Source of the DNA: an uncultured virus (IMG/VR IMGVR_UViG_3300008954_000036)
Lineage: Duplodnaviria > Heunggongvirae > Uroviricota > Caudoviricetes
DNA length: 64,000 bases
Direction: 5' to 3' (one strand)
Virus record (IMG/VR): IMGVR_UViG_3300008954_000036
Shown piece after piece: positions 2,528-17,998 of the stretch. Position numbers and translations under genes: made by a program. How positions within the stretch are numbered: the first letter of the stretch is position 1; each line of letters opens with the position of its first letter. The notes under the pieces are model-generated. The model had not been told where the DNA came from, did no database searches, and worked only from the letters and a program-made list of their open reading frames with translations.

Positions 2528-2576
2528 TGGAGCCCTATTAACTAATATTCGTTACTGTAAAGATTTGCATAAGATA

Positions 2577-2592: not shown

Positions 2593-2749
2593 TATCAATA
2601 ATTATTTCCAACTTTTTATAGCTTTACGAACGAAATCTGTTTTACTCAGGCCTTCGCTAGCGCAAATTTCATCTAGTTGACTATAAAGTTGCCTTTTAAT
2701 CTCGGGGTCAATTTCTATGACTGTTCGCCCGCTTTTTCCAATACTCATG

Positions 2750-2765
2750 CTGTATGCCTGTACAG
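2750..2765. promoter_or_regulatory. Second LexA (SOS) box candidate
   Basis: CTGT-ATGCCTGT-ACAG fits the CTGT-N8-ACAG pattern. Confidence 0.55.
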
Positions 2766-2816
2766 TTAAAGATGCTGTGCCGTATGTTATATATACGTAT
2801 CTTCTTTTGTTCTTTC

Positions 2817-4343
2817 TTAGTCAAGGCTATGATCTTCATTTACTCTCCTACTAGAAAGCCTATTTAGGGCTTGTTTATAACTACTAGTAGGATAAACCAA
2901 GGGCGTATCTGAAAGCTCTCGCTTAATATCGTTAAAACGGCACTTTGAATGCCTGAGTAAGCCTTCTTGTGCGCTATCTATAAAATCAACGTAAATAAAG
3001 CGTTTATCGTCTCTTGCTCTTAATACTCTGCCTAACCTTTGTATAGATTCAAAGTTGGATAAACCACCAGCTAGGTTAATAAGAACATCCATTTCTTTTA
3101 TGGATAATCCGCTGTTAATAACACTAGTAGCAAGGACTATTTTTAAGGTTCCGGTTTTTATTCTTTCATGAATAATGGGCATAGTTTTTTTAGCGGTTCC
3201 GCCTGTAAGAACTAGCACTTCATCTTCACTAAACTTTTTACTAAGAAGGTGTTTCATTCTCATAATATGAGACTTAAGTTTCACAGATATGAAAACGACT
3301 AATTTTTGGTTTTTGACAAAATCTAAAGTTAGGTTTGCCGCCAATACATTTCTTTCTGAATTAGATTCGATCCAAACTCGATGACGTAATAGGTCTTCAT
3401 TTTTAATAAATCGTAAATCTCCTCTTGGGGTGTGATCCTCTGATAATTCAAAAAATACGCAGTCACCTTGGGCCGTATATCCGTTGTCTTTAAGCTGCTC
3501 TGTGGTGGTCCAAGCTATTTCAGGGCCAAATCTTTGTATACATTTAAGTTTTTGTATATCAGCCTCGGTTTTTTTCTTCTCGCTTTTAGCCTTGAACGGG
3601 GTTCCTGAGAAGCCATAGACCCTAGCACCTTGAAACTTAGCTAAAATTTTATCTGAGCTTTCACATATATGTTTATGGCATTCATCGACTAGTATAAGTT
3701 TGGGCGGGGTTTTAAATTTGTGTAAGTTATTCACTACAGATTTATTAATACCTATGGTAATAGGCTGATCCAAGTTTAATTTACCGTCTCCGACAAGCCC
3801 TATTTTCCAGGGCAGGTATCTCCCTATATTATCCGCATGTTGATAAAGTAATACCTTGCTATGAACAAGAACGAGTGCGGGAAATATTTTTGTAGATTGA
3901 ATGATGCCCGTCATTAATTCGGTTTTACCAGCGTTCACCGCCATGTTTAGGATACCCGTAAAGTTCTTTACAGCTTGATCGTGTGCTTGTTGCTGATAAT
4001 CCCTGAGATTGAGGGGGATAATTGGGCTTGAGTGTACGGAACCTTCAAAATCCTCTGTCTGCTCTTCCTTTGGGCCGTTTACAAGCTGTTTAAAGGGGGA
4101 TAATGCTCTAAAGGTGTAATCTACCCGCTCGGTGTCCAGTATCGTTTTTAACATTGTCCAGGTCCCGTAGGAAATGAATTTTTGATTTTTATTCCTAATC
4201 AGGTAATGGGTTTTGTAGTCGGTTTTCTTCATAAGAAAATTTCTAGTCTTGTATGGGGTTTTAGAAATTTGCCTAAGCCATCCCCTGTCTTGTTCGCAGC
4301 AGTCGATTTCTACTAAATATCCATGTTGTATAAAATTCATCAT
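2817..4343 (-). CDS. Superfamily 2 DNA helicase (UvsW/XPB-like)
   Basis: LRDYQ Q-motif, AVNAGKT Walker A, DECH, SGT, QRLGRVLR motif VI. Confidence 0.85.
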   Translation of the reverse strand: MMNFIQHGYLVEIDCCEQDRGWLRQISKTPYKTRNFLMKKTDYKTHYLIRNKNQKFISYGTWTMLKTILDTERVDYTFRALSPFKQLVNGPKEEQTEDFEGSVHSSPIIPLNLRDYQQQAHDQAVKNFTGILNMAVNAGKTELMTGIIQSTKIFPALVLVHSKVLLYQHADNIGRYLPWKIGLVGDGKLNLDQPITIGINKSVVNNLHKFKTPPKLILVDECHKHICESSDKILAKFQGARVYGFSGTPFKAKSEKKKTEADIQKLKCIQRFGPEIAWTTTEQLKDNGYTAQGDCVFFELSEDHTPRGDLRFIKNEDLLRHRVWIESNSERNVLAANLTLDFVKNQKLVVFISVKLKSHIMRMKHLLSKKFSEDEVLVLTGGTAKKTMPIIHERIKTGTLKIVLATSVINSGLSIKEMDVLINLAGGLSNFESIQRLGRVLRARDDKRFIYVDFIDSAQEGLLRHSKCRFNDIKRELSDTPLVYPTSSYKQALNRLSSRRVNEDHSLD

Positions 4344-4350
4344 ATGATGA

Positions 4351-4380
4351 ATTATAACACAGATTTACGCTATATTCGTA
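4351..4380 (-). promoter_or_regulatory. Extended -10 promoter of the helicase, with upstream TACGAATATAG motif
   Basis: Minus strand reads TGTTATAAT just upstream of the ATG; the 11-bp motif recurs at 16749-16759 and 58212-58222. Confidence 0.55.
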
Positions 4381-4534
4381 CAGGTTTGAAAACCTTTAGC
4401 TTGCCTAAATAGCGGGAAAAATTTTCCCAAAATTCGCCGTCCCCAAAGCACTTTCAAATACCCCTAAATTTTTCAAACAAATATTCAAAGCAAAAAGGTA
4501 AAAGGTGTTTTCTGTTTGTAGGGGTAGAGGGTGA

Positions 4535-4554
4535 AGCTAGCGCTAGCGCTAGCT
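4535..4554. repeat. Perfect 20-bp palindrome AGCTAGCGCTAGCGCTAGCT
   Basis: Self-complementary sequence in the divergent intergenic region. Confidence 0.8.
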
Positions 4555-4730
4555 ACCTGAGCAGGCCTAGAAATATGAGGCCGTGTTACTATTTTCGTGA
4601 TGCGTGTAGTGTATCCTCTTTTTTCACAAAATTTTTCCAGGCCTTGGGATACCACTACCCAAAAAAATAACGCTATCTCTAAAATAAGAACTAGCGCAGA
4701 GCCTGGCGGGGGAACTAAGGGGGTAAAAGA

Positions 4731-5531
4731 ATGAATACTTTAAGGGAACTATTAAATGATTTGGAAGTAGTAGTAGGAGACTGCGAGGCAGAAGAAGATG
4801 CTAAGGCTAGGGATTACGTCGAGGTAGAAAAAGAACTAGACGTAATAATAAAACTAATAGGGGAAAAGGCTTTGGAAGGGAGCCTTTTTGTGTCGCAAGC
4901 AAAAACCATATCCCAGACGGCGGTAACCAGCATCAGTACAGGGATTGAAGCACTTTTTGCCTTGGATTCTTCCTTAGGTATCTTATATAGGGCAAAAGCG
5001 GCGCTCGAGAACCAAAGCCTGGAGGCAGAGGACGAGTTGGCTAATTTAACAACTAGCGAAAAACTTTTAGTTCTATCAAGAACTAAAGGTGACGCTAGTT
5101 CTATACCCGCCCTGGCTAGGGCGTTGAGGGCTAATAGACATGATCCTGTTAAAGTAGAGCTAGGCTTCTACTTTAATCTAGCAACGCTAGAAACAAAAAG
5201 TTTTTCTAGTGTTTCCGAGAAGCTAGGGCTAAGCAAGGAAGATTCCTTTAAATTAAAAGTAGCCTCCAGGCTAAAGAATAGGCTAAAGAAAGAAATAGCT
5301 CAGACAGAAAAAGAGCTGGAAGAATACAGGGGACAGAAATGGGAATACGTTATTAAAGAACAATTTAATAGCGTTGATAAAGTGGAATATGACGCTAAAA
5401 CGGAAACTTGGTCAAAGGTTACTAGAGAAGATAGGCTAGAAAAAATAGAAGGAATTAAAGATAGCCTAAAACTGAATTTCATTTATAGGCAGGCGTATAA
5501 AAAATTGCCAGATTTTAGCTTTAAGGCTTGA
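4731..5531 (+). CDS. Hypothetical coiled-coil early protein
   Basis: 266-aa ORF with a purine-rich leader. Confidence 0.65.
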   Translation: MNTLRELLNDLEVVVGDCEAEEDAKARDYVEVEKELDVIIKLIGEKALEGSLFVSQAKTISQTAVTSISTGIEALFALDSSLGILYRAKAALENQSLEAEDELANLTTSEKLLVLSRTKGDASSIPALARALRANRHDPVKVELGFYFNLATLETKSFSSVSEKLGLSKEDSFKLKVASRLKNRLKKEIAQTEKELEEYRGQKWEYVIKEQFNSVDKVEYDAKTETWSKVTREDRLEKIEGIKDSLKLNFIYRQAYKKLPDFSFKA

Positions 5532-5884
5532 GTCTGGCTTAACTAAGGAGTAAGAATGAGGCCAGGAATTAGCAGATTACCCCTACACAAAATTTTAAGT
5601 TTTAACTAAAGCTCAGGGGTCTATGACCTGGGCTAAAGTTATTAAAGTAGTTAAAAATACGGAACAAATAACCGTATTTTTGGGTAATAAAATTCTCCTG
5701 GGATTTAACCAAGAGAAGTTAGTTAGGAGGATTGTATGAAATTAAAATTAACCGTTTCCAGTAAGGGAACGGCTAATGGAAACCGGATTTGGTAATTACA
5801 TAATCTTTTATGCTATCTTTACGATAGTTTATATACTAAGTATAATCGCTAAAATAATTAGCGAAACTATTAAGGAGTTTGAGC

Positions 5885-6151
5885 ATGAAAAGAATGAACA
5901 AAGACTTGGAGCAAAAAGCCCTAAGTCTAAGAAAAGATCAAGAACTGCTAGGTTATGATTTGGTTGAGGGTAGGGTTCATTTATGTTACCAAGATCAAAT
6001 TAAAATCTACGAAGAAGGATTAAGTAAGCAAATAGGGTATAAAACCTGGGCCGGAGCTTATGAAAGACCTGTTACCTTTAAAGTAGAAAAACAGGAAAAC
6101 AAGCCAAAAGCACCTACCCCTAACCCTATAACTAAGCTTAAATCAAAATAA
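5885..6151 (+). CDS. Hypothetical protein
   Basis: AAGGAG RBS before the ATG at 5885. Confidence 0.55.
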   Translation: MKRMNKDLEQKALSLRKDQELLGYDLVEGRVHLCYQDQIKIYEEGLSKQIGYKTWAGAYERPVTFKVEKQENKPKAPTPNPITKLKSK

Positions 6152-6169
6152 GATAAACAAAGGAGTAAG

Positions 6170-6526
6170 ATGAAAAAAACAGAGGCGGTAGCTCTTGCTA
6201 AAAAAGCAGGGGCTACTTTGACTTTCTCCGGGGCTTGTATTACCGGACTAAAAAGAGGAAGCAGTACAACTAAGCTTAGCATTCAGCTAGGAGATAAGAA
6301 AGCTAAAAATAAGTTACTTTCTAATCTTGAAGTTAGGGAGTACACAGCAGAAGAGAAAGCAAAAATAAATAAGACTAAGAGAAGTATGCTTGTCAGAGTT
6401 AGAGAGCAGATAGAGAACTGCACCTATCTTTTGGACTTCACAACTTTAAGCCCGGAGGAAGGTAAAGAAGTAGAAAGAGTAAAGGCTAAATTTTACGAGC
6501 TTAAAGAAGAGCTTTTAAAACTTTAG
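6170..6526 (+). CDS. Hypothetical protein
   Basis: AAGGAG RBS; 118 aa. Confidence 0.65.
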   Translation: MKKTEAVALAKKAGATLTFSGACITGLKRGSSTTKLSIQLGDKKAKNKLLSNLEVREYTAEEKAKINKTKRSMLVRVREQIENCTYLLDFTTLSPEEGKEVERVKAKFYELKEELLKL

Positions 6527-6551
6527 ACTAAACATTAACTAAGGAGAAAGA

Positions 6552-6830
6552 ATGAAAAAAAAGGAAGTAGAGATAGGACAGTGTTATAGAGTTAAAATTA
6601 GTGGTAAAACCACCGTAGTGCAAATTACGCACTTAGGAAACCAGAAGGGATGGTGGGCCGTTAATTTAAGAACTGGGAGGGACGTAAGAATTAAGTCTGC
6701 GGCTAAGCTTAGGAAGCATGTCGGAGATCGCAAACGAGCAGAAGCTTACCTTTCATTGCTTGATAAAATTAAGGAAAAGTTAGCTTTAAGGAGAGGGGCA
6801 TTTAATGAAGTTCAAAGTCAAAGTGAGTAG
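6552..6830 (+). CDS. Small basic phage protein (SH3-like beta fold suspected)
   Basis: ATTAACTAAGGAGAAAGAATG leader; pattern GWWAVNLRTGRDVRIKSAAKLR. Confidence 0.65.
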   Translation: MKKKEVEIGQCYRVKISGKTTVVQITHLGNQKGWWAVNLRTGRDVRIKSAAKLRKHVGDRKRAEAYLSLLDKIKEKLALRRGAFNEVQSQSE

Positions 6831-7011
6831 AATATTATCGTCTACCCGCACAGTTGAGGTAGAGTTGACAGAAGAGGAAGTAAGTAAGAATGAACAGCTG
6901 GGAGTTTTACACGGAGCCGTAAAACTAGAAGCTTACAAAAAATTAAAAAGGGAAAAATGGTTCTCCCCTAACAGAGAACCAGAATACGTATTGGAGGTTA
7001 TAGAAGAATGA
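6805..7011 (+). CDS. Hypothetical protein
   Basis: Overlaps both neighbouring ORFs; purine-rich RBS. Confidence 0.55.
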   Translation: MKFKVKVSRILSSTRTVEVELTEEEVSKNEQLGVLHGAVKLEAYKKLKREKWFSPNREPEYVLEVIEE

Positions 7012-7319
7012 CTACAGACGAAGATTTAGAGCTAGAAATATATGTGGTTACTGGAAACAGTAACCTGAAAGAATCAGAAAAAATAGTGAATAAGGTAATG
7101 ACTTCTTTTAATAACATACTAGGAGATTTACAGGAAGATAGGTTTACTACTGATGATGTATATGCGGAAGCTCTAACCCTAAGTTTAATGCTAGGTTGTA
7201 AGGTATTAAAGCTCATGGAGTACGGAGTATTTTACATAGTGTTTGATTACACGCATGAGCTAAAACAAGAGGACATAGAGCTAGAACCCTGCTCTATAGA
7301 ACAAAGGAGTATTAACTAA
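7008..7319 (+). CDS. Hypothetical protein
   Basis: ATGA overlap with the upstream gene; GGAGG RBS. Confidence 0.6.
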   Translation: MTTDEDLELEIYVVTGNSNLKESEKIVNKVMTSFNNILGDLQEDRFTTDDVYAEALTLSLMLGCKVLKLMEYGVFYIVFDYTHELKQEDIELEPCSIEQRSIN

Positions 7320-7594
7320 TGAAAAAGAAAAATGAATGGCTAGAAATAGCCAAGAAAGAAAAGGACGTAGAGGTTCTACTAGGTAAGATATGGAGACATG
7401 TAGAACCTAATTACGACGAACTGGAAATTATTGACCCAAAGAAATATAGGGTCAATAGGGCCTGGTTTATAGAGGTGGCAGAGTACGTAAGGGATAACCC
7501 AGATCAGTTTAATGAAAAGTTACAAGCAAAGGGAACTACACCTGCCATTGTATTTAATATGTTATGGCTCAACTACGGGCCAAAAGCTGTCTAG
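7319..7594 (+). CDS. Hypothetical protein
   Basis: TAATG coupling; AAGGAG RBS. Confidence 0.6.
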   Translation: MKKKNEWLEIAKKEKDVEVLLGKIWRHVEPNYDELEIIDPKKYRVNRAWFIEVAEYVRDNPDQFNEKLQAKGTTPAIVFNMLWLNYGPKAV

Positions 7595-7622
7595 GCTTAA
7601 CCATTAACTAAGGAGAAAGAGA

Positions 7623-8786
7623 ATGTTTAGTATACATAATAGAGAATTTAAGAAAGCGCTTAAGGTGCTAAAAACTGTCACCGGTACTAAGTTAGAAAAA
7701 TACCCTAAGCCGGTATTGGATTATGCGGTATTGGACGAAGACTATATTACATATGTACATAAAAGACTAACTATTAAAATACCGATAAATGTAATTAAAG
7801 ACTACTCCGTAAAAGGAGAAGTAATTTTCCCGGTGAAGGATGCTATATATATAGCAGATATGTTAGACGAAAAAGGAGCTATTCTAGTAGGGGCAAACGG
7901 GATTAAGCAGGGGGAAATAAACTATACGTATGCTAAAAGCATTAGACCAGATCAGTATAGCTTAGATATAACGGCCTATACTGATAGGAATGAGCCTGTT
8001 GCTACGTGGGAAACCAGAGGGGTTACTTTAAATAAAGAAAAGGTTTTAAGGGCTATGGAGTTTGGGGAAATCTTTTGTTCTACCAGTAATATAAATGTAC
8101 AAGGCGCACCTAATCTATGCCTTGCGTATAACAAAGCTACTAACGTTGTGGAGCTTGTTGGCACAGACGAATGTGCCTTGAGCTTAGGGGCTGCACCTAT
8201 TGAGGAAAGCTTTTTTAAGGAAGAATTCAAATTTGTTTTTATGGTTAAGCATCCGGCTATCCTTAAGAAGTTACTTAAGCTACTGCCAGACAGAAAACTT
8301 ATTCTGTACTATTCCGAAGATAAGCTAAGGTTTATTTTCCCAGAGTCGGAAGTAGTTTTACAGCTAAAAGCCGCACACAACGATTTTTACAACTACAGAG
8401 ACTATATAACTAAGGGGAAAACTCACTGTACTGTTAGGGCGGCAGAAATCAAAAGCACCTTAGAGCGTGTGGTCAAGATAGGGGCAGTGCCTAACAATAA
8501 ATATAACCCTATAAAAAACAAAGCCGTGAAAGAAGCTATGTGCTACATAAATAAGGAACTAACCTTATTGGTGGCAGATAGAGGAATGGGGGAAATATCG
8601 ACCCCGATTGAGGCGGAGGTGATAGAAAAAATAGAAAAAGAAGTAGCGTTTAACCCTAACTATTTATTGAAACTAGTTAAGGCGGCTAAAAAGTTGCCTA
8701 TAAATATTTCCTTCCGAGGGGCGGAATGCCCTATAGATTTCACAGTGGGGGAACACAGGGCAATAGTAATGGCACTTAGGCAGTAG
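7623..8786 (+). CDS. DNA polymerase III beta-clamp-like protein (divergent)
   Basis: 387 aa, the size of a clamp; C-terminus EVAFNPNYLLKLVKA...AIVMALRQ resembles DnaN FNxxYLxD...IMPMR; VGTDECAL resembles VATDGHRL. Confidence 0.65.
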   Translation: MFSIHNREFKKALKVLKTVTGTKLEKYPKPVLDYAVLDEDYITYVHKRLTIKIPINVIKDYSVKGEVIFPVKDAIYIADMLDEKGAILVGANGIKQGEINYTYAKSIRPDQYSLDITAYTDRNEPVATWETRGVTLNKEKVLRAMEFGEIFCSTSNINVQGAPNLCLAYNKATNVVELVGTDECALSLGAAPIEESFFKEEFKFVFMVKHPAILKKLLKLLPDRKLILYYSEDKLRFIFPESEVVLQLKAAHNDFYNYRDYITKGKTHCTVRAAEIKSTLERVVKIGAVPNNKYNPIKNKAVKEAMCYINKELTLLVADRGMGEISTPIEAEVIEKIEKEVAFNPNYLLKLVKAAKKLPINISFRGAECPIDFTVGEHRAIVMALRQ

Positions 8787-8788
8787 TA

Positions 8789-8852
8789 ACTACGAAACTA
8801 CTTACTAGAAATAGTAAGTAGTCTACAGGTTAAACCTGTACTGATGAGTAGT
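8789..8852 (+). ncRNA. Type II hammerhead ribozyme (copy 1); predicted cleavage after C8823
   Basis: ACUAC-GAAA-C[UACUUACUA gaaa UAGUAAGUA]GUC-[UACAGG uuaaa CCUGUA]-CUGAUGA-GUAGU: complete catalytic core and three stems. Confidence 0.92.
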
Positions 8853-9001
8853 AACGGGCGATAACTCCTGCTGTGTGAGAGTAGGGGGAAGGTGGATAAA
8901 CTAGCAAGTGAGCTGGGCATAGATATACAGTGGCATAGTATCCATCCTTCCTTATTTTACTTGGGGAGGGAATACTACTTCTCGGAAATTAAAAGCTTTG
9001 T

Positions 9002-9301
9002 GTGAAAACTGTGTGCAAATCAGAAAGTGGTAAATATCTAGGCAGATTTAAAGACGGTATATTCTGTAATCCCATAGAGTATGTCTTAGAATCTGATAAC
9101 CCGGGGGCTAAACCTAGAGAGCTGGGTTTAGGGGGCTGGTTAAAGCTTCTAGAGGTAGAGAAGAAAGAAGACCTACAATCATTAGGATTTATCTTAATTG
9201 ATGTGAGGGCTGTTAAAAAAGAGGAGACTAAAGAAGTCTCCTGGGTAGAGCAGGTTAACCAACTACTAAAAGAGTATTGGGAAGTAGTTGAAAAGGAGTA
9301 A
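9002..9301 (+). CDS. Hypothetical protein, sharing a motif with 13020..13421
   Basis: LGGWLKLLEVEKKEDLQSLGFIL vs LGFWLKKMECDSAGELEDLGFIL. Confidence 0.55.
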   Translation: MKTVCKSESGKYLGRFKDGIFCNPIEYVLESDNPGAKPRELGLGGWLKLLEVEKKEDLQSLGFILIDVRAVKKEETKEVSWVEQVNQLLKEYWEVVEKE

Positions 9302-9418
9302 GGCGCAGAATATTTGAGCCTATTACAAATAAAGACAAGAAATTACTTAATGTAAGTAGTGCCGGGATCACTCGAATTGAGTGGAAAAGTTAAGAATTTA
9401 AAATTAAGGAGAAAGATA

Positions 9419-9949
9419 ATGGAAGTTACTTTGTATTTTAAAGTAGAGGAAGATTTAAAAGGCAAACTAGACGTAAGTTTGGATATCTATTCAACCTGCA
9501 TTTTGGAAGCCATAACAGATTTTATAGAAGATAATGAATTAGTCGATTCCGTGGATGACTTGGAGGAAAGAATAACAATTCAAAGATTTGAGGAAGATGA
9601 GTTTAATGAGTTATTAATAAATGCAGGACAAGACCAGCTAGAAACTAGCTGGTCTGAGTTGGCTTTTTTATATAATAACTACTCTGATGAATTAGTGTCG
9701 GCATGGTTATCTTATTTTGTAAAAGACTCTAGTAGTTTTAGATATATAGAGAAGAGCTATTTTATCGATAACCTAGTAGGGGAGTTTAATTCAGAAAGAG
9801 ATTTTGCAGAAACTAAAGCTATAGAAAATGAGGTAATAACAAGACAAAACTTGGAATACTTGGAATGGGAAATTTACCTAAAAGATTTAACAAGCGACTA
9901 CACTATTTTAGATTTACCCCGCGGCGGTATTGTGGTTTTTACGGCTTAA
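9419..9949 (+). CDS. ArdA-like antirestriction (DNA mimic) protein
   Basis: Very acidic; C-terminus GEFNSERDFAE...YLEWEIYLKDLTSDY matches the ArdA pattern; AAGGAG before the ATG at 9419. Confidence 0.65.
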   Translation: MEVTLYFKVEEDLKGKLDVSLDIYSTCILEAITDFIEDNELVDSVDDLEERITIQRFEEDEFNELLINAGQDQLETSWSELAFLYNNYSDELVSAWLSYFVKDSSSFRYIEKSYFIDNLVGEFNSERDFAETKAIENEVITRQNLEYLEWEIYLKDLTSDYTILDLPRGGIVVFTA

Positions 9950-9966
9950 AACAAAGGAAAAAGAGA

Positions 9967-10596
9967 ATGAAAAAAACATACGAAATTAAATTAAATACTG
10001 ATGATAGTTATGTAGTACCGGGGCTAACAAATAAACAACACCGTTTATATATAAGCTTAGATAAATTTATGGGGATTGTAATATTTGTCAACGGTAAAAA
10101 TACCCCCAAATTTAAGAAAAAGCCTACGCTTAAAAGCGGGGAATTAAAAAAGGATGTTTTCAAAATAAGCTGTAATAAAGAATCAGATTTTATATTAAAT
10201 AAGATTAATATAGATAATCTGGTATATGAAAAAGTTACAGGACGGGTAGATAATCGAACTCTAATAATTTCCTTATGGGTAAAAGATATAATAATCTTAG
10301 AATTATATTTACCAGATTTTAACTTTAGTGGTGATACAGAAACAGGAGGAGATAGTCACTGGAACTACAAAGATAACTTAATAAGACACGCAAACGAGCT
10401 AATTAGTAGAGCGCAAAGTGGTATGAAGATAGACAATAAGTGGGTTAAAGCTAATATAGATAACTACGAAAAAGGAAGGAAAGCGCATTTTAAAGACTGG
10501 AAAAAAAGAACCAGAGAAGAGGGTAATAGCATAGCCAGAGAGTTAACCAAATTAGTAAAAGGAGAAAGAGAATGGGATATAGAAGTGATGTTGTAA
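9967..10596 (+). CDS. Hypothetical protein
   Basis: Likely start MKKTY at 9967 after a purine-rich leader. Confidence 0.6.
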   Translation: MKKTYEIKLNTDDSYVVPGLTNKQHRLYISLDKFMGIVIFVNGKNTPKFKKKPTLKSGELKKDVFKISCNKESDFILNKINIDNLVYEKVTGRVDNRTLIISLWVKDIIILELYLPDFNFSGDTETGGDSHWNYKDNLIRHANELISRAQSGMKIDNKWVKANIDNYEKGRKAHFKDWKKRTREEGNSIARELTKLVKGEREWDIEVML

Positions 10597-11147
10597 TAAG
10601 AATAGACAGTAACGCAGTTACAAAAGAGTTCGAGAAGGGGTTAAAGGAGCATGAGATAGACTACCAGATAAATGAATTTTGTTTAGAGATAGAACTAGTA
10701 AGCGTGAAGTGGTACCCGGATATAGAGGAGGTTAAATTTATAATACACTTTTTGGATAAGCTGGCGGATAACCAGTATGGGCTTATAGAAATAGGGGAAG
10801 GAGAAAACATAAGAACAGAGGGGGAATACTGGGAGTTTGATTTAGGCTACTCAGTCACTATAACTAAAGGAGAATTCCAACGATCCCCTAAGCTCTCCCA
10901 TACGCTTAAGGTTTTTTGCTCCTCTAGCAAAATGAAGCTATCACAGTTTTTCATAGATAAAATAAATGAATGTGTGGACAAAAAAGACCCCGTAATAGCG
11001 GGTCAAATTTCAGAAACTTTTCGGTTTAAAGCCGGATTAAACTATACCCAAATCTACGAGCAGGTTATAGCAGTCGCAGAAATTAGCCTAGACGAATGGG
11101 ATACTCTGCTATACGAAGCAGATATCCTTAATAGCCAAACTTACTAA
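10572..11147 (+). CDS. Hypothetical phage protein (MGYRSDV N-terminus)
   Basis: AAGGAG RBS; 191 aa. Confidence 0.65.
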   Translation: MGYRSDVVIRIDSNAVTKEFEKGLKEHEIDYQINEFCLEIELVSVKWYPDIEEVKFIIHFLDKLADNQYGLIEIGEGENIRTEGEYWEFDLGYSVTITKGEFQRSPKLSHTLKVFCSSSKMKLSQFFIDKINECVDKKDPVIAGQISETFRFKAGLNYTQIYEQVIAVAEISLDEWDTLLYEADILNSQTY

Positions 11148-11212
11148 ACTACGAAACCACTTGCTAGAAATAGCCTGTGGTCTGCGGGTTAAACCCGTAC
11201 TGATGAGTAGTT
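11147..11212 (+). ncRNA. Type II hammerhead ribozyme (copy 2); predicted cleavage after C11182
   Basis: AACUAC-GAAA-C[CAC uu GCUA gaaa UAGC cu GUG]GUC-[UGCGGG uuaaa CCCGUA]-CUGAUGA-GUAGUU; compensatory changes relative to copy 1. Confidence 0.92.
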
Positions 11213-11233
11213 AGTTAACTAAGGAGAAAGAAA

Positions 11234-12103
11234 ATGAACGAGTATGAAAAGAAACAACAAGCTAGAAAGCAAAGGTATTTGGATAATGCTGATAAAGCTG
11301 AAAATAGAGCTGAGGAAGCCTTTACTAATGCTAGTAATTTATCTGAAGCTATGGTGCCGGGACAGCCTATCCTGGTAGGGCATCATTCTGAAAAGAAGCA
11401 TAGAAAACATCTTGATAAGATGGATAATCTTATGCGTAAAGGAGTAGAAGAAGATAAGAAAGCAGAATACTACAGAGACAAAGCGGATAGCGTAGGAACT
11501 GCCGGTATTTCTGCGGATGACCCGGGGGCTAAAAGAAAGCTGGAGGATAAAGTTGCAGAGCTAGAAGCCTCAAGAAAGGAAATGAGAGAACACAATAAGT
11601 TTATACGTAAACTGATAGGTAATGCGATAGCTAACAAAGGAGGGTTAACAGAAGAGAGTTCCTTGCTGTGCCGTACAAAATTAGCGGAAGCGCTGGAAAA
11701 AGACCCAGAAAACACAAGAATAAAAAAAGCTATTGATATGCTGGGCGCTAGAATTTGCCCCTTTGCTATGCCTATATACAAGAGTTTTGAATTATCTAAC
11801 TTAGGGCAAAATCTTACTAGGTATAAAAAACGCTTAGCTATGGAACAAAAGAAAGCTGAAATAGTAGAGAAAAACGAGGGTAAAAACCCTGAGACTATGA
11901 GAAACGGGGTACGGATATTGCAGAATTTCGAGGATAATAGACTACAACTATTTTTCCCTGGTAAGCCAGACAGAGATTCCCGCACAAAGCTAAAGAAGGC
12001 CGGTTTTAGGTGGTCTAGGCTTAATGGGTGTTGGCAAGCATACAATAACAACAGGGCGCTGAGTTTACTAAATGAAGTAACTAAAGACTGGGAAAAGGAG
12101 TAA
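11234..12103 (+). CDS. DUF3560-like protein
   Basis: YEKKQQARKQRY...GQPILVGHHSEKKHR...ISADDP, plus a C-terminal GFRWS motif. Confidence 0.75.
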   Translation: MNEYEKKQQARKQRYLDNADKAENRAEEAFTNASNLSEAMVPGQPILVGHHSEKKHRKHLDKMDNLMRKGVEEDKKAEYYRDKADSVGTAGISADDPGAKRKLEDKVAELEASRKEMREHNKFIRKLIGNAIANKGGLTEESSLLCRTKLAEALEKDPENTRIKKAIDMLGARICPFAMPIYKSFELSNLGQNLTRYKKRLAMEQKKAEIVEKNEGKNPETMRNGVRILQNFEDNRLQLFFPGKPDRDSRTKLKKAGFRWSRLNGCWQAYNNNRALSLLNEVTKDWEKE

Positions 12104-12107
12104 GAGA

Positions 12108-12392
12108 ATGAATGATTTTTACTATGCGGGAAACTGTAAGGGATTAGAGGCGGAGGATATAGAGGCTATGGTAGACGCTAGGCAAAGTATTAGCTATGCG
12201 ACTATCACAAGAAGAGTCTGTAAGTCTGATTTAAGAGACTTTAAGAGGCGAAGAGGTTATGTAGTAGGAGATAAATTAACCCTAGAGAACGCCTATGCTG
12301 TGAGGTTTTACAAGTCTATGTTTAAGGGTAAGCTTTGCTACTATATAGAGCATAACAGAATAGAGTATATATTTTTAAGAGATGAGGAGTAA
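12108..12392 (+). CDS. Hypothetical protein
   Basis: AAGGAGTAAGAGAATG leader. Confidence 0.6.
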   Translation: MNDFYYAGNCKGLEAEDIEAMVDARQSISYATITRRVCKSDLRDFKRRRGYVVGDKLTLENAYAVRFYKSMFKGKLCYYIEHNRIEYIFLRDEE

Positions 12393-12396
12393 GAGA

Positions 12397-12684
12397 ATGA
12401 ATGAGATTGATTTTAATAAGGGTTCTTGGCTGTTCAGAACTACTGGCGAAGTTGAACAAATAAGCCCAGAACGTGATAACTGTTTTAGCCTGGAAGAAAT
12501 GCAGAGATACGTTAACGGCTTAATCCAAATTGTAGGAAGCCCTATAGGAGGCAAGGAGGTCTACTGTAATGAAGAAGGCCTACTTTATGATTTACCGGTA
12601 AATATGGCCTATTTATTACATTTTGACCAGGAGCTTAGGGGTAATGTATTGCTACTGTGTGAAAAGCAGTTATCTGTAGGTTAA
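12397..12684 (+). CDS. DUF3846-like protein
   Basis: SLEEMQRYVNGLIQIV...YCNEEGLLYDLPVN. Confidence 0.65.
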   Translation: MNEIDFNKGSWLFRTTGEVEQISPERDNCFSLEEMQRYVNGLIQIVGSPIGGKEVYCNEEGLLYDLPVNMAYLLHFDQELRGNVLLLCEKQLSVG

Positions 12685-13012
12685 AAATTAGTAACAAAGG
12701 AGACGGAAACATGAAATTATACATTTACAAATGCGGGGGGGGCCGGGGCCAAGCCCCTATAACAGAAAACATAAACATTAAGGATGGCGACAGCCCTTAT
12801 GTTGAAAAAAGGGCCATGGCCATATACGAGGAGGTCGGGCCCTTCATTGCAAGGGACCCCGACACCCTGAACGAAGTGCTTTCCGTCGTTTACCTCACCG
12901 ACGGGAAGCCGGCTTACACCTGGGGCTAAAAATGGTCAGGGGGTTAGGGGGTAATGTATTGCTACTGTGTGAAAAGCATTTATCTGTAGGTTAAAAATTA
13001 GTAACAAAGGAG
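12635..13012 (+). repeat. About 68-bp direct repeat (12635-12702 and 12944-13012) flanking an inserted gene
   Basis: Near-identical GGGGTAATGTATTGCTACTGTGTGAAAAGCA(G/T)TTATCTGTAGGTTAAAAATTAGTAACAAAGGAG, offset about 310 bp. Confidence 0.9.
12711..12929 (+). CDS. Hypothetical protein, GC-richer inserted gene
   Basis: 72 aa, lying between the direct repeats; many C/G-ending codons. Confidence 0.6.
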   Translation: MKLYIYKCGGGRGQAPITENINIKDGDSPYVEKRAMAIYEEVGPFIARDPDTLNEVLSVVYLTDGKPAYTWG

Positions 13013-13019
13013 TAAGAGG

Positions 13020-13421
13020 ATGGAAGAAAATACATTAAAAATAGAAATTGAACTAAGCGAAGATAAGCTACTGAATTGGGTAGCGTTAATGAATTCAAAC
13101 CCCGATACTAAAGATACTATTAAGCATATAGACGATATCAAAAAATTTATTGAAACTTATATAAAAACTAGAGTTAATCCTATATCTCATATACAGTTTG
13201 CTAGCAGTGCAAGGCAAAAAGCTAAAAAGGTTTTGGAAAGTTTAATGCTTTACAGCCTGGGCAGGCCCATAGAAGGCGTGAGCTTAAACGGCCTGGAGTG
13301 GGTTTTGAACAAAAACAACGAGGTCAGGATAAAACCTCTAGGTTTTTGGCTAAAAAAAATGGAGTGCGACAGCGCGGGCGAACTAGAAGATTTAGGGTTT
13401 ATTCTGCGAAAGGAGGAATGA
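13020..13421 (+). CDS. Hypothetical protein
   Basis: AAGGAG RBS; motif shared with 9002..9301. Confidence 0.6.
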   Translation: MEENTLKIEIELSEDKLLNWVALMNSNPDTKDTIKHIDDIKKFIETYIKTRVNPISHIQFASSARQKAKKVLESLMLYSLGRPIEGVSLNGLEWVLNKNNEVRIKPLGFWLKKMECDSAGELEDLGFILRKEE

Positions 13422-13485
13422 TGGGAACATATTTTAACTTTAAGACCTCGGACCCGGAAAGGGTAAACGTCTTATTCTAGGCAAG

Positions 13486-13781
13486 ATAGAAAACCTGAAT
13501 ACGGATAATTTTGAGTCAGAATAATTCTGAATGAAAACGAATCCAAGTTGGGTTATAGTATTAGCGTAGTATCTACTACATCAAAAGCAAGACATACCGC
13601 CTTTGTAGGAGGTGGTTAGGCAAAAAGTAAAAGAAAGTCTTTTGCTGGATGCCAGAAAACCCCTAGCATTAAACTTACGATGAGAGGCGTGTTGGGGGTT
13701 TTTGATATCTAAGGAAACTGGCAAAGACACTTAGAGATAGTTTAGCCCTTAACTTAACTATTACTGAGCCTAGTTTTCTAT
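13486..13781 (+). ncRNA. Candidate structured (pseudoknotted) noncoding RNA, family unassigned
   Basis: Nested helices with plus-strand G-U pairs and a TGCCAG/CTGGCA pseudoknot; no long plus-strand ORF. Confidence 0.4.
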
Positions 13782-13838
13782 ACCCTGTCCCTGTAATGGG
13801 GGCAGGGTTTTGTTTATTGAGAAGAAAGGAGTTTAAGG

Positions 13839-14468
13839 ATGGGAAAGAAAAAAGAAGAGCTAGAAACACTGGTTATTGATTACCGGGACGTTGAGCTGGA
13901 AGTAGTGGATAAGCATATCCCTGAAACTGAGGAAAAGTCTGTGTTTACCGGTAGGAAGATTGAACAGTTTAGGAGGCATACTGAGGATAGGATTAAGAAC
14001 CGAAGTGAGTTTCTTAAAAAGCTTTGTATAACAGAGAGTATAGACGGTATAGGTTGGTTTGACATTAGGGGTAGAAGGTTTCGCAGTTCCAGAAAAAGAA
14101 AAGTAGATATTGTTATGTCTGATTGGGGGCTTACAGAAGGTAATGTTTTATCGCAGGAGGTTACTAAAGAAGTTGCAATGCTGAATGTTAGTACTAATAG
14201 AAAACTATACAATTTGCTTATGGGGAAAGAAAACTGTGAGGTTAATTTATACCTGGAAAACCCTGCTTATATTTACCAGATTATTGCTACTCAGTTTCAT
14301 AGTAATGGAATGCCTAAAACTACGGGATGGTATTTGTTTGTGATTTATAAGGTGGATGAGCTAGAGGAGCAGTCATTACTAGCAGAACTACAGGTTAAGG
14401 ATTCTATTATTGTGGCTGTTACTTATGATGGGGGAGCTTTGAGAGAAGATTGTGCAATAGGGATGTGA
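13839..14468 (+). CDS. Hypothetical protein
   Basis: AAGGAG RBS; 209 aa. Confidence 0.65.
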   Translation: MGKKKEELETLVIDYRDVELEVVDKHIPETEEKSVFTGRKIEQFRRHTEDRIKNRSEFLKKLCITESIDGIGWFDIRGRRFRSSRKRKVDIVMSDWGLTEGNVLSQEVTKEVAMLNVSTNRKLYNLLMGKENCEVNLYLENPAYIYQIIATQFHSNGMPKTTGWYLFVIYKVDELEEQSLLAELQVKDSIIVAVTYDGGALREDCAIGM

Positions 14469-14513
14469 GTTGTAATATCCTTTGTTTTATTTGTTCGGTG
14501 TGTCTTGTTTGTA

Positions 14514-14544
14514 TCCTACGTATACTCCTAGAGTATACGTAGGA
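14514..14544. repeat. Perfect 14-bp inverted repeat with 3-nt loop
   Basis: TCCTACGTATACTC-CTA-GAGTATACGTAGGA. Confidence 0.8.
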
Positions 14545-14828
14545 GGGGAGTAGGTTTCAATAGTTGTAATGCGTGGGGAAGTTTGGGTATTTTTTCCCAA
14601 AGTTTGCGCTAAAAGTATAGGGGGTATCGGGAACCAAAAATAGAGGTAGTGGGGGTGGTGGTGTGGAGGGGGTTTTTATAGTGGGGGACAGCCAAAAACT
14701 AAAACTACCCCTAGAAATAAAACTAGGATAACTACTAGAAAAACTACCCATGTTACTATTTAGACGAGCCAGGAGGACAACGACTCGCCGGCTCATAGTA
14801 TTAATAGTTTACAAAGGGAGATGGAAAC

Positions 14829-15026
14829 ATGAATATTATTAAAATGCTGAAGAAGTCAGTTCCTGATTACTATCAGGAACTGGATTTGCGGGTCCATTTC
14901 ACGGACCCAGCCTCAAGAGGGCCGGAGTACGGCCAGCTGATGGAATATCTTGAAGATGGGCGGGACATTTTTGTTCCCGCCCCGGGGTTAGATGCACCAT
15001 TTATTGTGTGCATCAAAGACTTTTAA
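14829..15026 (+). CDS. Hypothetical protein
   Basis: GGGAGATGGAAACATG leader, similar to that of the 12711 gene. Confidence 0.55.
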   Translation: MNIIKMLKKSVPDYYQELDLRVHFTDPASRGPEYGQLMEYLEDGRDIFVPAPGLDAPFIVCIKDF

Positions 15027-15049
15027 TTTTTAACAAAAGGAATGGAATT

Positions 15050-15421
15050 ATGAAAGAAACTAAAACTAATGAAATAGAACTAGATCAAGAGCTTGAGCAT
15101 TTTTTCGCAGTAGCTACTGCGAAAAAAGACAGGACCAGGAGTGGAATTATGGAAGCCCTAGGGCTGAGTCGGGATATTGTCCCGATTCTGGAGGTGGTCA
15201 ACGAGCAAACGCTAGCGCTTGCGCTAGCGTTCATTCAGAAAGATATAGTACCGCGTCTTGGCGGTGCACCTTTGGTCACAACCAAGGGGACGGGGGGACA
15301 ATTAACCTTAAAAGTAGAGCTTCTTGATAAATGTATGCACAAGAAGCTCTTCACAGTGATGAGGATACAAGGAAGGTCGACCTTCGTTCTTTGCGGAGTG
15401 AATCAAATAATCAAGAGCTAG
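15050..15421 (+). CDS. Hypothetical protein
   Basis: Likely start MKETK at 15050. Confidence 0.55.
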   Translation: MKETKTNEIELDQELEHFFAVATAKKDRTRSGIMEALGLSRDIVPILEVVNEQTLALALAFIQKDIVPRLGGAPLVTTKGTGGQLTLKVELLDKCMHKKLFTVMRIQGRSTFVLCGVNQIIKS

Positions 15422-15589
15422 CTATGCTAGCTCTTGGTTTCATACTCGGCTTAGCAGTAGGACTTGCCCTACTGCTAGGCCAAGACTAAAATTATGGGGG
15501 GCCGGTTACCCAGGCCGGCCCCCCAACTACTAGCTAGTGGCCTACGATTATTACTAGATTTTACCGGAAGGGGCGGCGAAATGGTCGTA

Positions 15590-15744
15590 TACAATATTAT
15601 TAAAATTTAGTAGGGGGTAGTAGGTAAAACCTAATAAAATAGTTGCGTACAATATTATTAAAATTTAGTAGGGGGTAGTAGGTAAAACCTAAATAGTCGT
15701 ATACAATATTATTAAAATTTAGTAGGGGGGTAGTAGGTAAAACC
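15590..15744. repeat. Three tandem 42-43-bp direct repeats (iteron-like)
   Basis: TACAATATTATTAAAATTTAGTAGGGGG(G)TAGTAGGTAAAACC at 15590, 15648 and 15702. Confidence 0.9.
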
Positions 15745-15769
15745 CGCACCTAAAGGCGACTGAGGTATA

Positions 15770-16252
15770 TTACTCAGGAAATTGGATATCTTTGTAGACT
15801 ATATTCCAAGCCATAAATACTACAGAATTACAGACCTGCTCCATAGAAATAGACTTAACCTGGATAATCGAATTCCAAGGTAATGATCTCCAAGATTCTT
15901 CTGTTAACTCATCTATAGAAGTAACACCCTGTTTGCATAAGTAATCTAAAATGAACTTATTATGGACAGAGAAGAAATTGATAGCTTTGTCGGTGAAAGT
16001 ACAATCTAGGTAGTCTATTAAAGAGTCAACATCGTGATTATCAAAGAACTGAGATACTTCATTTCCTTTTATTCTTAGAGCCTCTAATTCTGGGTTTATA
16101 AATTCTACTTCTTGATCAGTTTCTTCTACCAAACCCACTTCAACTAAACTTACACCAGAAGTTTCATTATCTACACTAACTGAAACTTCTTCTGAGGAAG
16201 AGGATAAAGTTTTGATAACTGATTTGTTATTCATTAGAATCCTCCTTCTCAT
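15770..16252 (-). CDS. Hypothetical acidic protein
   Basis: 160-aa ORF; the true start may be the second Met (16231). Confidence 0.6.
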   Translation of the reverse strand: MRRRILMNNKSVIKTLSSSSEEVSVSVDNETSGVSLVEVGLVEETDQEVEFINPELEALRIKGNEVSQFFDNHDVDSLIDYLDCTFTDKAINFFSVHNKFILDYLCKQGVTSIDELTEESWRSLPWNSIIQVKSISMEQVCNSVVFMAWNIVYKDIQFPE

Positions 16253-16682
16253 CTTTCTCGATCCTATCTAAAAGGTTTTCTAACTTGCAGTAAAGGGATA
16301 AACTAATAGCTTGAGATTCACTACAAAACCCATTTAAAATCTCACTAATGATTTTTACAGCTTCTATTCTACTTTCTTTTAAATCAATCTCTGGAAACTG
16401 TTCTTTCCAAAAGTCTTCTACAAAAGTAAAGTTTTTATCTGCCCCTACTTCTAACCAACCATGATCTACAGCCAAATAAAGACTCTGGTTTAAATCATGC
16501 CCTGATTGTAAAGAAGAAGTTTGATAACATTCCATACAGTCACGAAGGATAAAAGGTTTAAACCCCTGAAACTTATTAAGCATTTCCATTAACAAGCTAT
16601 AAATAAAAGTGCTTTGGGTATCCAAACTATCTAACTCTATCTTCTCATATTTCATGTTTTTCCTTTTTTGCTCAATATTCAA
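16227..16682 (-). CDS. Hypothetical protein
   Basis: 151-aa ORF overlapping the downstream gene; the start may be at 16655. Confidence 0.6.
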   Translation of the reverse strand: MNIEQKRKNMKYEKIELDSLDTQSTFIYSLLMEMLNKFQGFKPFILRDCMECYQTSSLQSGHDLNQSLYLAVDHGWLEVGADKNFTFVEDFWKEQFPEIDLKESRIEAVKIISEILNGFCSESQAISLSLYCKLENLLDRIEKDEKEDSNE

Positions 16683-16768
16683 ATAATATTATAACTATAC
16701 TTAAGATTACTTAAATACTAGTATAACACAGTGATTAAGAATTGTATGCTATATTCGTATACTATTAT

Positions 16769-16798
16769 AAAAAAGTGAAACCCCCGAAGGGGTTTCAT
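16769..16798 (-). terminator. Rho-independent terminator
   Basis: Minus strand ATGAAACCCC-TTCG-GGGGTTTCAC-TTTTTT. Confidence 0.75.
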
Positions 16799-17359
16799 AC
16801 TCTTTCGCTGTATTTAACTATCTTCTAGCTTTCATTACCTTCTATTATGTGAAGTTATTTTTTATTTCATACTCAGACTAAAAAAGAATTTTAACTTATA
16901 GAGGCGAAGCCTCAAGTTAATCAAAGCAAGTATCTTTAAAAGAGACACAGATTAAAAGTGTTTACCCTGAGGAGTTGTATTGTATACAAACATTCTCAGG
17001 GCTGTAAATTATTAAAACCATCCCTTACTGGCAGTATTGTGATAGTAATGTGATACCCTGAATCATTCAAAGACTTATTTCAACTGTCTAAGCCAGTCGA
17101 AATTATTCGATAAAGCGAAGCTTCACCTAATAAAAAAAAGAAAGAAAAGGGTAAAAGAAAGAAAAACGATGCCCGTAGGGGAACATATTTTTTCATATGT
17201 TGTCAAATCCGAAATTAAAGTTTTTTTGAAAGTAGGGTAAAAACCCTTTAATACGAATTGAAATAGCTCTAATTTCTATACAAATACTAGGAAAAACTAG
17301 GAATTACGGCTATAAGTAAAAAATTTGTAGCCGGAACTACTGATTAACAGCGGAAACTA

Positions 17360-17998
17360 CTATTTTTTATAAATTCCACGAAAAAAGAACCAATTTCCAT
17401 CTTTTTTTATGATTTCGTTTAAAGCTAGGAAATTCATTTTCTTAGGTTGCGGGATATCATACCCGGAGTATCTAAGCATATTCCACGCACTTTGATAGAG
17501 CCTTTCTTGGTGGCGGTCCATTTCTTCTAAAGTACGGAATACCACTTTTATATTTCTACAGGCCAGCTCATATCTTACTTGCCGGATAAGGAGGAACAGA
17601 TGGCGGATGCTTTCTTCCTCTATCTCCATTCTAAAATCGAATTCCCAGTTCTCGTAGTCATCCTCGTTTAGCATAAAAGAGAAGTCTTTGCCTATAACGC
17701 ATACTGTTACTAATTTATCGTTCTTAGATAAGTAGAGCTTTAATTGCTGGTAAATTTCCTGGAGGTAGGCTACTTCCCAAGTATCTTTAACTAGCATAGA
17801 ACGTATGATTGCTCTTTGTTTGCTAACTAAGAATTTGTTATTGAAGAAATCAAACGATATAATACGTATTACATCGTTCTTTTTAGGTAGCCCAAACTTG
17901 AGTTGAACCTTGTTCCTGATCTTCGCCCATTCCCTAGCAAAACTTGGAAGTTTACATAATTGCATTAGCATTTGATTTTTTCGTTTATGAGGGTTCAT
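17360..17998 (-). CDS. Hypothetical protein
   Basis: 212 aa; AGGAG RBS on the minus strand. Confidence 0.65.
   Translation of the reverse strand: MNPHKRKNQMLMQLCKLPSFAREWAKIRNKVQLKFGLPKKNDVIRIISFDFFNNKFLVSKQRAIIRSMLVKDTWEVAYLQEIYQQLKLYLSKNDKLVTVCVIGKDFSFMLNEDDYENWEFDFRMEIEEESIRHLFLLIRQVRYELACRNIKVVFRTLEEMDRHQERLYQSAWNMLRYSGYDIPQPKKMNFLALNEIIKKDGNWFFFRGIYKK

Follow-up and report, generated by a model that had tools for sequence, protein, structure and literature searches.

What do two closely similar hammerhead-like elements do when they stand on either side of four small genes in a phage operon? The question is raised by a 64,000-nucleotide (nt) stretch of DNA from an uncultured tailed virus (IMG/VR record IMGVR_UViG_3300008954_000036), which as a whole is called the window below. 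A first-pass annotation of it had recognized two complete type II hammerhead ribozymes on the coding strand, bracketing a cassette of four genes, and had taken the pair for a device that excises or circularises a 2359-nt messenger RNA (mRNA). We examined the motifs, their relatives and their surroundings computationally. The two hammerheads, lying in intergenic gaps, are probably functional and split a long phage operon mRNA (about 5.85 to 13.8 kb, + strand) into pieces. The motifs and their parts are listed here, where RF02276 is the Rfam family Hammerhead_II and model R1 is a covariance model built from copies 1 and 2.

8789-8852, + strand: hammerhead ribozyme motif copy 1, type II (sequence, pattern scan, repeat finder, fold, RF02276 at 25.5 bits, model R1 at 95.9 bits)
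8789-8793 with 8848-8852, + strand: stem II of copy 1; its other parts are GAAA at 8794-8797, C17 at 8823 and CUGAUGA at 8841-8847
8797-8822, + strand: stem III of copy 1, 11 base pairs (bp), GAAA loop
8824-8840, + strand: stem I of copy 1, 6-7 bp, UUAAA loop
C8823/U8824, + strand: predicted self-cleavage site of copy 1, from the position of GUC relative to the core
11148-11211, + strand: hammerhead ribozyme motif copy 2, type II (same kinds of evidence, RF02276 at 21.0 bits, model R1 at 94.9 bits)
C11182/U11183, + strand: predicted self-cleavage site of copy 2, read from the sequence

Both 64-nt copies are built in the same order, which is ACUAC, GAAA, stem III with its GAAA loop, GUC followed by the cut, stem I with its UUAAA loop, CUGAUGA and GUAGU. 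In the minimum free energy (MFE) folds of the 64-mers, both have the type II layout, as stem II is open and loops cap stems I and III. The core is complete in each copy (C3-U4-G5-A6-U7-G8-A9, G12-A13-A14, A15.1-U16.1 and C17), and the core-flanking pairs G10.1-C11.1, U1.1-A2.1 and A15.1-U16.1 are intact, with no mispair beside the core. Stems I, II and III measure 7, 5 and 11 bp in copy 1, and 7, 5-6 and 5+4 bp in copy 2. In the latter, stem III contains a 2x2 internal loop (U.U, U.C) with five pairs on the core side and four on the loop side. This internal loop is 5 bp away from the core and within a long stem, not a mispair in a short one, and stem II of copy 2 can gain further pairs (11143-11147 with 11211-11215), for a total of 9 bp with a single bulged base. 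Both copies thus conform to all the acceptance rules of Perreault et al. 2011 (PMC3088659, cited here and below from the part of the article available to us), which concern the core, core-adjacent mispairs and multiple mispairs in short stems.

Each motif starts within 3 nt of a stop codon, as had been noticed before: TAG at 8784-8786 ends 2 nt ahead of copy 1, and TAA at 11145-11147 abuts copy 2. The end of copy 2 had been placed at 11212, one base too far, and is corrected here to 11211. The two predicted cuts are 2359 nt apart. A double cut would free nt 8824-11182, and here the coordinates and the length proposed earlier agree with the sequence.

Chance is a poor explanation for such a pair. 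The pattern CGAAA..GTC..CTGATGAG has two matches in the window against 0.02 expected, and at least two matches were found in none of 100 shuffles. A repeat finder returned the same pair as a direct repeat of 65 nt with 86% identity and a spacing of 2359 (family D6). The MFE is -23.1 kcal/mol for copy 1 and -23.0 kcal/mol for copy 2, and the fold is exactly the three-way junction in both cases. The fold z-scores are -4.57 and -4.25, and no shuffle among 200 folds equally well. Sequence, MFE folds and pattern statistics therefore bear out the original call of two complete type II hammerheads on the coding strand.

The manner in which the copies have diverged is also informative. All nine differences between them fall inside the 32 stem I and III positions of the 65 (P = 0.00088 under random placement). 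No difference affects the core, either loop or stem II, which confirms the identity that the first-pass annotation had reported for the core, the stem I loop and stem II, and extends it to the second loop. The differences in stems I and III had been described there as compensatory or wobble changes. This holds for three compensatory pairs, changed on both sides, and for one A-U to G-U change; it does not hold for the other two differences, which create the adjacent U.U and U.C mismatches of the internal loop. Because the changes spare the core, the loops and stem II and include three double changes, the divergence pattern indicates that the fold has been under selection.

The same pattern bears on a rival explanation, in which the copies are inert repeats, left as a recombination scar by the insertion of a four-gene cassette or serving as a hot spot for module exchange, and play no ribozyme role now. 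A direct repeat does flank a cassette of ORFans here. Moreover, a second direct repeat in the operon (12638-12702 and 12948-13012) flanks an open reading frame (ORF) of 72 amino acids and has no fold signal, so that gene insertion with duplicated junctions does occur in this operon. However, at 86% identity an inert pair has to account for nine changes none of which touches the core, a loop or stem II, as well as for three pairs changed on both sides. Among sequencing runs, 8600-11400 was traced to six, all of them marine or seawater DNA metagenomes from two studies (one run may be the source), and to no RNA run. Contigs from four of these other marine metagenome runs are identical to the window over 8600-11400 except for C>A at 9925, and none joins across the cassette. 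We regard inert repeats as distinctly improbable. A duplication origin and later maintenance as ribozymes can both be true. Since the metagenome contigs are identical, they offer no natural variation in the ribozymes to exploit.

Hammerheads of the same kind are present in other viruses. Scanning for the sequence word of stem I and its loop led to four viral contigs (L025, L026, L027 and L028), three of which (L025, L027 and L028) share one identical hammerhead. L026, an IMG/VR contig from an unrelated phage, carries five type II hammerheads within 3.7 kb (2607-6325). Four of the five are located just ahead of a ribosome-binding site, and stem II is nearly the same in all five. One of the L026 hammerheads matches copy 1 exactly in its stem I hairpin. 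Scans with a pattern for the same stem II gave one viral locus, 19 metagenome loci and 14 genome loci, none of them from a relative of this phage. Among the 19 metagenome loci, only L007 and L012 reached E < 1e-4 with model R1, and most of the remaining ones were rejected by eye for having no hammerhead fold. The best of the 14 genome loci scored 22.4 bits with model R1 (E 0.0033).

For covariation, the model was run with filters off and gathered ten hammerheads, which come from the window, L001, L012, L025 and L026 (five sources). Standard pairs occupy 96.9% of the 193 cells, and 19 of the 22 pairs are changed on both sides somewhere in the set. None of 500 shuffles was as good, and when partners were slid, 24.0-42.7% of the cells were paired. 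In stem III, which was unconstrained by any search pattern, double changes occur in 9 of the 11 pairs.

How many such motifs does the phage have in all? The window is a tailed-phage genome, with terminase, portal, capsid and tail proteins, a DnaB-like helicase and a family A DNA polymerase. The record G001 represents this genome with 100% identity: its positions 1-4325 correspond to window 15679-20000 and its last 119 bases to window 1-119. As the end of G001 wraps to window 1-119, the genome is circular or circularly permuted with a length of about 76,667 bp, which fits the longest contig known to carry the ArdA-like protein. G001 itself is without the region of the ribozymes, since it starts at window 15679 and wraps to window 1-119. 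When the window and the rest of the genome (L024, the part of G001 beyond the window) were scanned with a type II descriptor, 12 matches were obtained, and stems longer than 4 bp were found only in the two copies. Model R1 returned only the two copies, plus a 14.4-bit match on the reverse strand to the palindromic stem III. There are exactly two type II hammerheads in this circular marine phage genome of about 76.7 kb. A scan for type I and III layouts gave two candidates, both spurious. Of other RNA families, no more than sub-threshold matches at chance level appeared when 4300-18200 was searched with Rfam in E-value mode.

The place of the two motifs suggests what they could do. From about 5.85 to 13.8 kb, all genes lie on the + strand with tight spacing and near-identical strong ribosome-binding sites (repeat families D2 and D3). 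Both copies are intergenic and on the coding strand, and copy 2 is situated between a stop codon and the next ribosome-binding site, which is that of the DUF3560 gene (11222-11227, 11 nt past copy 2). The predicted folds keep this site essentially free of pairing, so a reading in which stem II masks it does not apply to copy 2. On the + strand, no strong terminator-like site (with more than three G-C pairs) was found between 6217 and 13782. The elements of the operon that matter here are as follows.

5818-5846, + strand: best promoter-like site, possible operon start (consensus match; the number of such sites equals chance expectation)
7623-8786, + strand: upstream gene, sliding-clamp-like DNA polymerase processivity factor (phrog_947, E 2.6e-15; Pfam DNA_pol3_beta_3, E 0.0039, below cut-off)
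9002-9301, + strand: cassette ORF 1, 99 amino acids, GTG start, weak ribosome-binding site (no Pfam or PHROG match)
9419-9949, + strand: cassette ORF 2, 176 amino acids, divergent ArdA-like acidic protein with an isoelectric point (pI) of 4.05 (distant homology)
9967-10596, + strand: cassette ORF 3, 209 amino acids, basic (no known family)
10572-11147, + strand: cassette ORF 4, 191 amino acids, acidic (no known family; its stop abuts copy 2)
11234-12103, + strand: downstream gene, DUF3560 protein (Pfam DUF3560, E 5.1e-33; phrog_6744 and phrog_19458)
13782-13808, + strand: strongest hairpin resembling an intrinsic terminator, possible operon end (12 pairs, 7 of them G-C, with a T-run; consensus match)

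We propose that each motif would fold and cut itself during transcription, copy 1 after C8823 and copy 2 after C11182. Three pieces would result, one with the upstream genes ending with the sliding-clamp gene, the 2359-nt piece with the four cassette genes, and one with the downstream genes from the DUF3560 gene on. Cleavage by hammerheads leaves a 2',3'-cyclic phosphate on the upstream end and a 5'-OH on the downstream end. Because stem II is the open helix, the last part of an upstream piece should be the stem III hairpin of 10-11 bp and, after it, a UC that bears the cyclic phosphate; in a downstream piece, the stem I hairpin should begin with the first nucleotide, which bears a 5'-OH. The products would be held together by the 5-bp stem II only and should therefore separate. 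Hairpin-capped ends and 5'-OH ends are poor substrates for 3' exonucleases and for decay that depends on the 5' end, so the pieces may have lifetimes and expression levels of their own. We infer both the cleavage and its effect on mRNA stability from the motifs and their positions.

In synthetic biology, RiboJ-type insulators work along these lines. The 5' leader is trimmed by a hammerhead that precedes the ribosome-binding site, and the new 5' end carries a hairpin, by which expression is uncoupled from the upstream sequence. Unlike the present pair, RiboJ is synthetic and single-copy, and is derived from a plant satellite ribozyme.

The arrangement, including the link with ardA, was already described for phages in 2011. 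Perreault et al. reported arrays of type II hammerheads flanking genes in prophages, with cleavage in vitro and in E. coli, and suggested that they process a long phage transcript (PMC3088659). In Agrobacterium they noted ardA as one of the genes that are flanked, and in Legionella strains they noted it immediately after a hammerhead (PMC3088659). In a 2019 review, cited from its available part, the cutting of polycistronic transcripts into pieces of differing stability is treated as suggested but unproven, and the purpose of these ribozymes is said to need more work (PMC6765202). The window shares with the 2011 arrays the type II topology, the canonical core, the intergenic position on the coding strand, several copies flanking a short block of genes whose identity varies, an ardA-type gene among the flanked ones, and the proposed part in processing a long phage transcript. 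It differs in that the ArdA-like gene comes second behind the ribozyme instead of directly following it. New here are the host and the phage lineage, which is marine, with a genome of about 76.7 kb and no close relative among GenBank phages. The hammerhead link with ardA-type genes, first noted in 2011, thus recurs in a distant phage, which would not surprise a specialist. Yet with two ribozymes and an ArdA-like cassette the locus makes a clean, unusually simple addition to a class whose biological purpose is unsettled. As there are only two sites, it is a tidy system for studying the stability and expression of the released piece, ligation products, and modulation by the segment after copy 1 that is described below.

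Several observations weigh against mRNA processing by this pair, and the scores in Rfam come first among them. Comparison with the Rfam models, suggested along with the original call, gave a divided outcome. At gathering thresholds nothing was reported in the window. Run in E-value mode, Rfam placed Hammerhead_II (RF02276) first for each copy, with matches that span the whole model and include no pair flagged as non-standard, but the scores of 25.5 bits (copy 1) and 21.0 bits (copy 2) are under the gathering score of 37. Compared with the 2011 arrays and RF02276, stem III is long (10-11 bp), stem II has 5 bp, and the pseudoknot between loop I and the tail is weak or unclear.

This pseudoknot, formed by loop I and the 3' tail with at least four pairs, is a feature of the majority of type II hammerheads (PMC3088659). 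By eye, the UUAA in the loop of copy 2 (11189-11192) can pair with UUAA at 11215-11218, giving four A-U pairs in competition with the extension of stem II. In copy 1, UUA can pair with UAA (8852-8854 or 8862-8864), and a fourth pair needs stem I to open. The L025 and L026 hammerheads with the same loop have no matching tail, again by eye. With only four A-U pairs in copy 2 and about three in copy 1, the speed of cleavage at cellular Mg2+ is uncertain.

Two further points concern comparative evidence. The alignment used for covariation had been fitted to the model, and the patterns through which its members were collected hold the core constant, together with parts of stem I or II. In addition, no close relative of the phage turned up among GenBank phages, IMG/VR, metagenome contigs or genome contigs. 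With blastn, 8600-11400 had no match in GenBank phages. The clamp protein had no match by tblastn, and a search for related loci with it found none. All matches to the terminase are below 60% identity, the best being 34-35%. Searches with ORF 9419-9949 and ORF 10572-11147 returned near-identical copies only. The DUF3560 protein led to a pair of distant loci, L003 and L004, which matched over 62 residues with 42% identity, and no hammerheads were found in either.

The last point of this kind comes from the sequence that follows copy 1, where the segment below was picked out post hoc.

8972-8986, + strand: segment complementary to the 3' half of copy 1 (8841-8853; duplex -13.3 kcal/mol)

The duplex has 12 pairs, and the segment lies about 120 nt past copy 1. 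An energy of -13.3 kcal/mol was reached in 9 of 1000 shuffles and in none of 139 natural windows. In the context 8770-9010, the MFE fold (-78.0 kcal/mol) pairs 8841-8853 with 8972-8986 and 8790-8793 with 8783-8786, and stem II is broken. Enforcing the hammerhead there gives -73.5 kcal/mol, a cost of 4.5, and the probability of the hammerhead helices at equilibrium is about 0.0014. As the equilibrium fold breaks stem II, copy 1 may cut only partly. On this modelling it is possible that copy 1 has a kinetic window with partial cutting, or that the 8972-8986 helix forms after the cut. The segment could be an anti-ribozyme, forming an alternative helix that inactivates copy 1, or part of a post-cleavage structure that sequesters the 3' half of copy 1.

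A regulated function of copy 1 may be read from this. Cleavage would then be conditional, with copy 1 acting as a switch, kinetic or regulated, that cuts only before 8972-8986 has been transcribed, or while ribosomes or other factors keep that segment unpaired. Thereafter the alternative helix would lock the core away, and the share of RNA cut after the clamp gene would be tunable. The complementarity of -13.3 kcal/mol, rarely reached in shuffles and in none of the natural windows, speaks for it, as does the use of the alternative helix by the full-context MFE fold. When eight transcript prefixes with ends from 8852 to 8992 in steps of 20 were folded, the hammerhead was present in the seven ending at 8872-8992 and absent from the one ending at 8852, as judged by the outermost pair of each helix. 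Copy 2 lacks a comparable partner (-5.7 kcal/mol), and regulated cleavage in phages was raised as a possibility by Perreault et al. (PMC3088659). On the other hand, the observation is post hoc and made on one sequence, the z-score of the whole leader is just -2.2, the helix may form only after the cut, and the prefix check covered no pair other than the outermost of each helix. A switch at copy 1 is, on balance, unlikely.

The alternative helix bears as well on the most far-reaching proposal of the first-pass annotation, in which the freed fragment becomes a circular mRNA. The 5' half of copy 2 and the 3' half of copy 1 would form a hybrid hammerhead that brings together the two ends of the 2359-nt fragment. 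The circle would be closed by reverse hammerhead ligation or by a host ligase of the RtcB type, and the product would resist exonucleases and be translated into the ArdA-like protein and three others. If both ribozymes cut, they would leave ligatable ends, this chemistry being established for hammerheads in general. The copies do not differ in stem II, and a bimolecular hybrid takes up the hammerhead fold in silico (-23.8 kcal/mol versus -25.4 and -25.3 kcal/mol for the native ones). Bacterial ribosomes are able to start internally, so translation of a circle is conceivable. The stem II of this hybrid, with its flanks, is however the weakest of the four combinations, at -4.2 kcal/mol versus -7.7 (native copy 1), -6.4 (native copy 2) and -7.4 kcal/mol (the hybrid that splicing would produce).

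Other properties of the fragment speak against a circle. Its 200-nt ends are no more complementary to each other than pairs of operon segments are, 11% of 271 controls being at least as good. Pairing with the nearby segment 8972-8986 (-13.3 kcal/mol) is stronger for the 3' half of copy 1 and would keep it from a distant 5-bp partner. An RtcB gene was not found in G001 or among the window ORFs scanned. A shared stem II is also seen in the five-copy L026 array and needs no special explanation, since the copies are paralogous. The fragment, moreover, is a 2.36-kb mRNA with four coding-like ORFs, not a compact self-paired RNA. This last feature sets it apart from retrozymes and viroid-like circles (Cervera and de la Pena; review PMC7761336, from its available part), which measure about 150-300 and about 700 nt. 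There, as here, a unit is bounded by two like hammerheads in direct orientation, and double cleavage leaves ends able to re-form a hammerhead and be ligated. Theirs are short, non-coding, strongly self-paired units with type I or III motifs, shown to be circular; ours is a 2359-nt four-gene mRNA with type II motifs and no special pairing of its ends.

Circularisation of hammerhead arrays is not a new idea either. Spliced or circular products of such arrays were considered by Perreault et al. in 2011, and the available part of their article states that no circular or spliced products of comparable arrays were detected, with the data not shown there (PMC3088659). In our literature search, whose coverage excludes subscription journals, no published demonstration of circular RNAs from phage hammerhead pairs was found. 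Given the weak hybrid stem II, the ordinary complementarity of the ends, the competing local helix and the RtcB gene not found, the excision and circularisation device that had been proposed is not supported, and we consider a circular mRNA highly improbable. If true, it would be a phage-programmed protein-coding circular RNA. In a weaker variant, the 8841-8853/8972-8986 helix may make copy 1 conditional and thereby set the amount of cassette mRNA that is released.

The reverse joining was weighed too. In splicing-out, the end at 8823 is ligated to the end at 11183, the cassette is removed from part of the transcripts, and a hammerhead is rebuilt at the joint from the 5' half of copy 1 and the 3' half of copy 2. 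The stem II of this combination is as strong as the native ones (-7.4 kcal/mol), and the possibility is named in PMC3088659. The rebuilt motif, however, would cut itself again, such products went undetected in the 2011 study as far as its available part reports (PMC3088659), and no benefit is obvious. Splicing-out has next to no claim on these grounds. Cleavage of the operon mRNA into linear pieces thus remains our preferred account of the pair.

What would the middle piece encode? As the first-pass annotation had stated, it carries an ArdA-like gene and three other ORFs. Codon usage is coding-like in all four, including ORF 9002-9301 (0.316 bits per codon in frame versus -0.78 in the two other frames), and no Pfam or PHROG match was found for any of them. 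The ArdA call came out as a distant homology of the C-terminal half. ORF 9419-9949 is strongly acidic (pI 4.05), with 41 aspartate and glutamate versus 13 lysine and arginine among 176 residues, and has no Pfam match even at E <= 10. A HMMER search of 1.84 billion representatives gave one distant match, P0004 (E 2.7e-4, 38% identity over residues 82-175), which is itself a full-length ArdA (PF07275, E 4.1e-32). When a profile of P0004 and P0005 was aligned with the ORF by hhalign, the probability was 82.9% (E 9.2e-6) over 84 columns, in the C-terminal half only. In the nearest clusters of a language-model Atlas (scores 0.89-0.90), ArdA is annotated on 20-47% of the members. A single-sequence AlphaFold2 model was unusable (mean predicted local distance difference test score 37.8), and phmmer against PDB sequences gave nothing below E 0.06.

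ORF 9419-9949 therefore resembles ArdA DNA mimics (PF07275) in its strong acidity and in a C-terminal half that aligns with a bona fide ArdA, and departs from them in lacking a direct Pfam match and in an N-terminal half that is unmatched. With moderate support, it appears to be a divergent ArdA-like protein by its C-terminal half only. Neither ArdA nor DUF3560 was found beside the hammerheads of L025, L026 and L001, where the sole Pfam matches are a serine recombinase and a DUF2997 protein. The cassette had also been called early, a label that we infer from its gene content only.

Just upstream of the ArdA-like gene is a 30-nt element with a small hairpin (CACUC-GAAUU-GAGUG) at 9359-9388, which recurs at 52061-52090, 42.7 kb away, with 100% identity in opposite orientation.

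Further along the same operon, the direct repeat at 12638-12702 and 12948-13012 mentioned above is 65 nt long with 98% identity, and the 72-amino-acid ORF between its copies spans 12711-12929. ORF 12382-12684 runs with its 3' end into the first copy. No fold signal was detected in the repeat (z-scores -1.1 and +0.2), and it looks like a scar of gene insertion or duplication.

At 15579-15746, in the gap between convergent gene blocks, three tandem 56-nt units are found (100, 93 and 77% identity). The array could contain promoters, an origin or a packaging site. Since G001 begins within it (window 15679), it probably breaks assemblies.

Three observations were made elsewhere in the window. The family A DNA polymerase is split over 59892-63007. 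ORF 59892-62102 covers an exonuclease domain and positions 27-242 of the polymerase profile, ORF 62492-63007 covers positions 232-381, and between the halves is a 138-amino-acid ORF (62095-62511) of no known family; no Rfam intron was found in this region at gathering thresholds. An ORF with a response-regulator receiver domain (PF00072, E 1e-9) is located at 48327-49364 among late genes. Finally, a DNA methyltransferase (809 amino acids) and a helicase of the ResIII/SNF2 type (508 amino acids) are encoded on the - strand at 98-4343, divergent from the operon that holds the two ribozymes.

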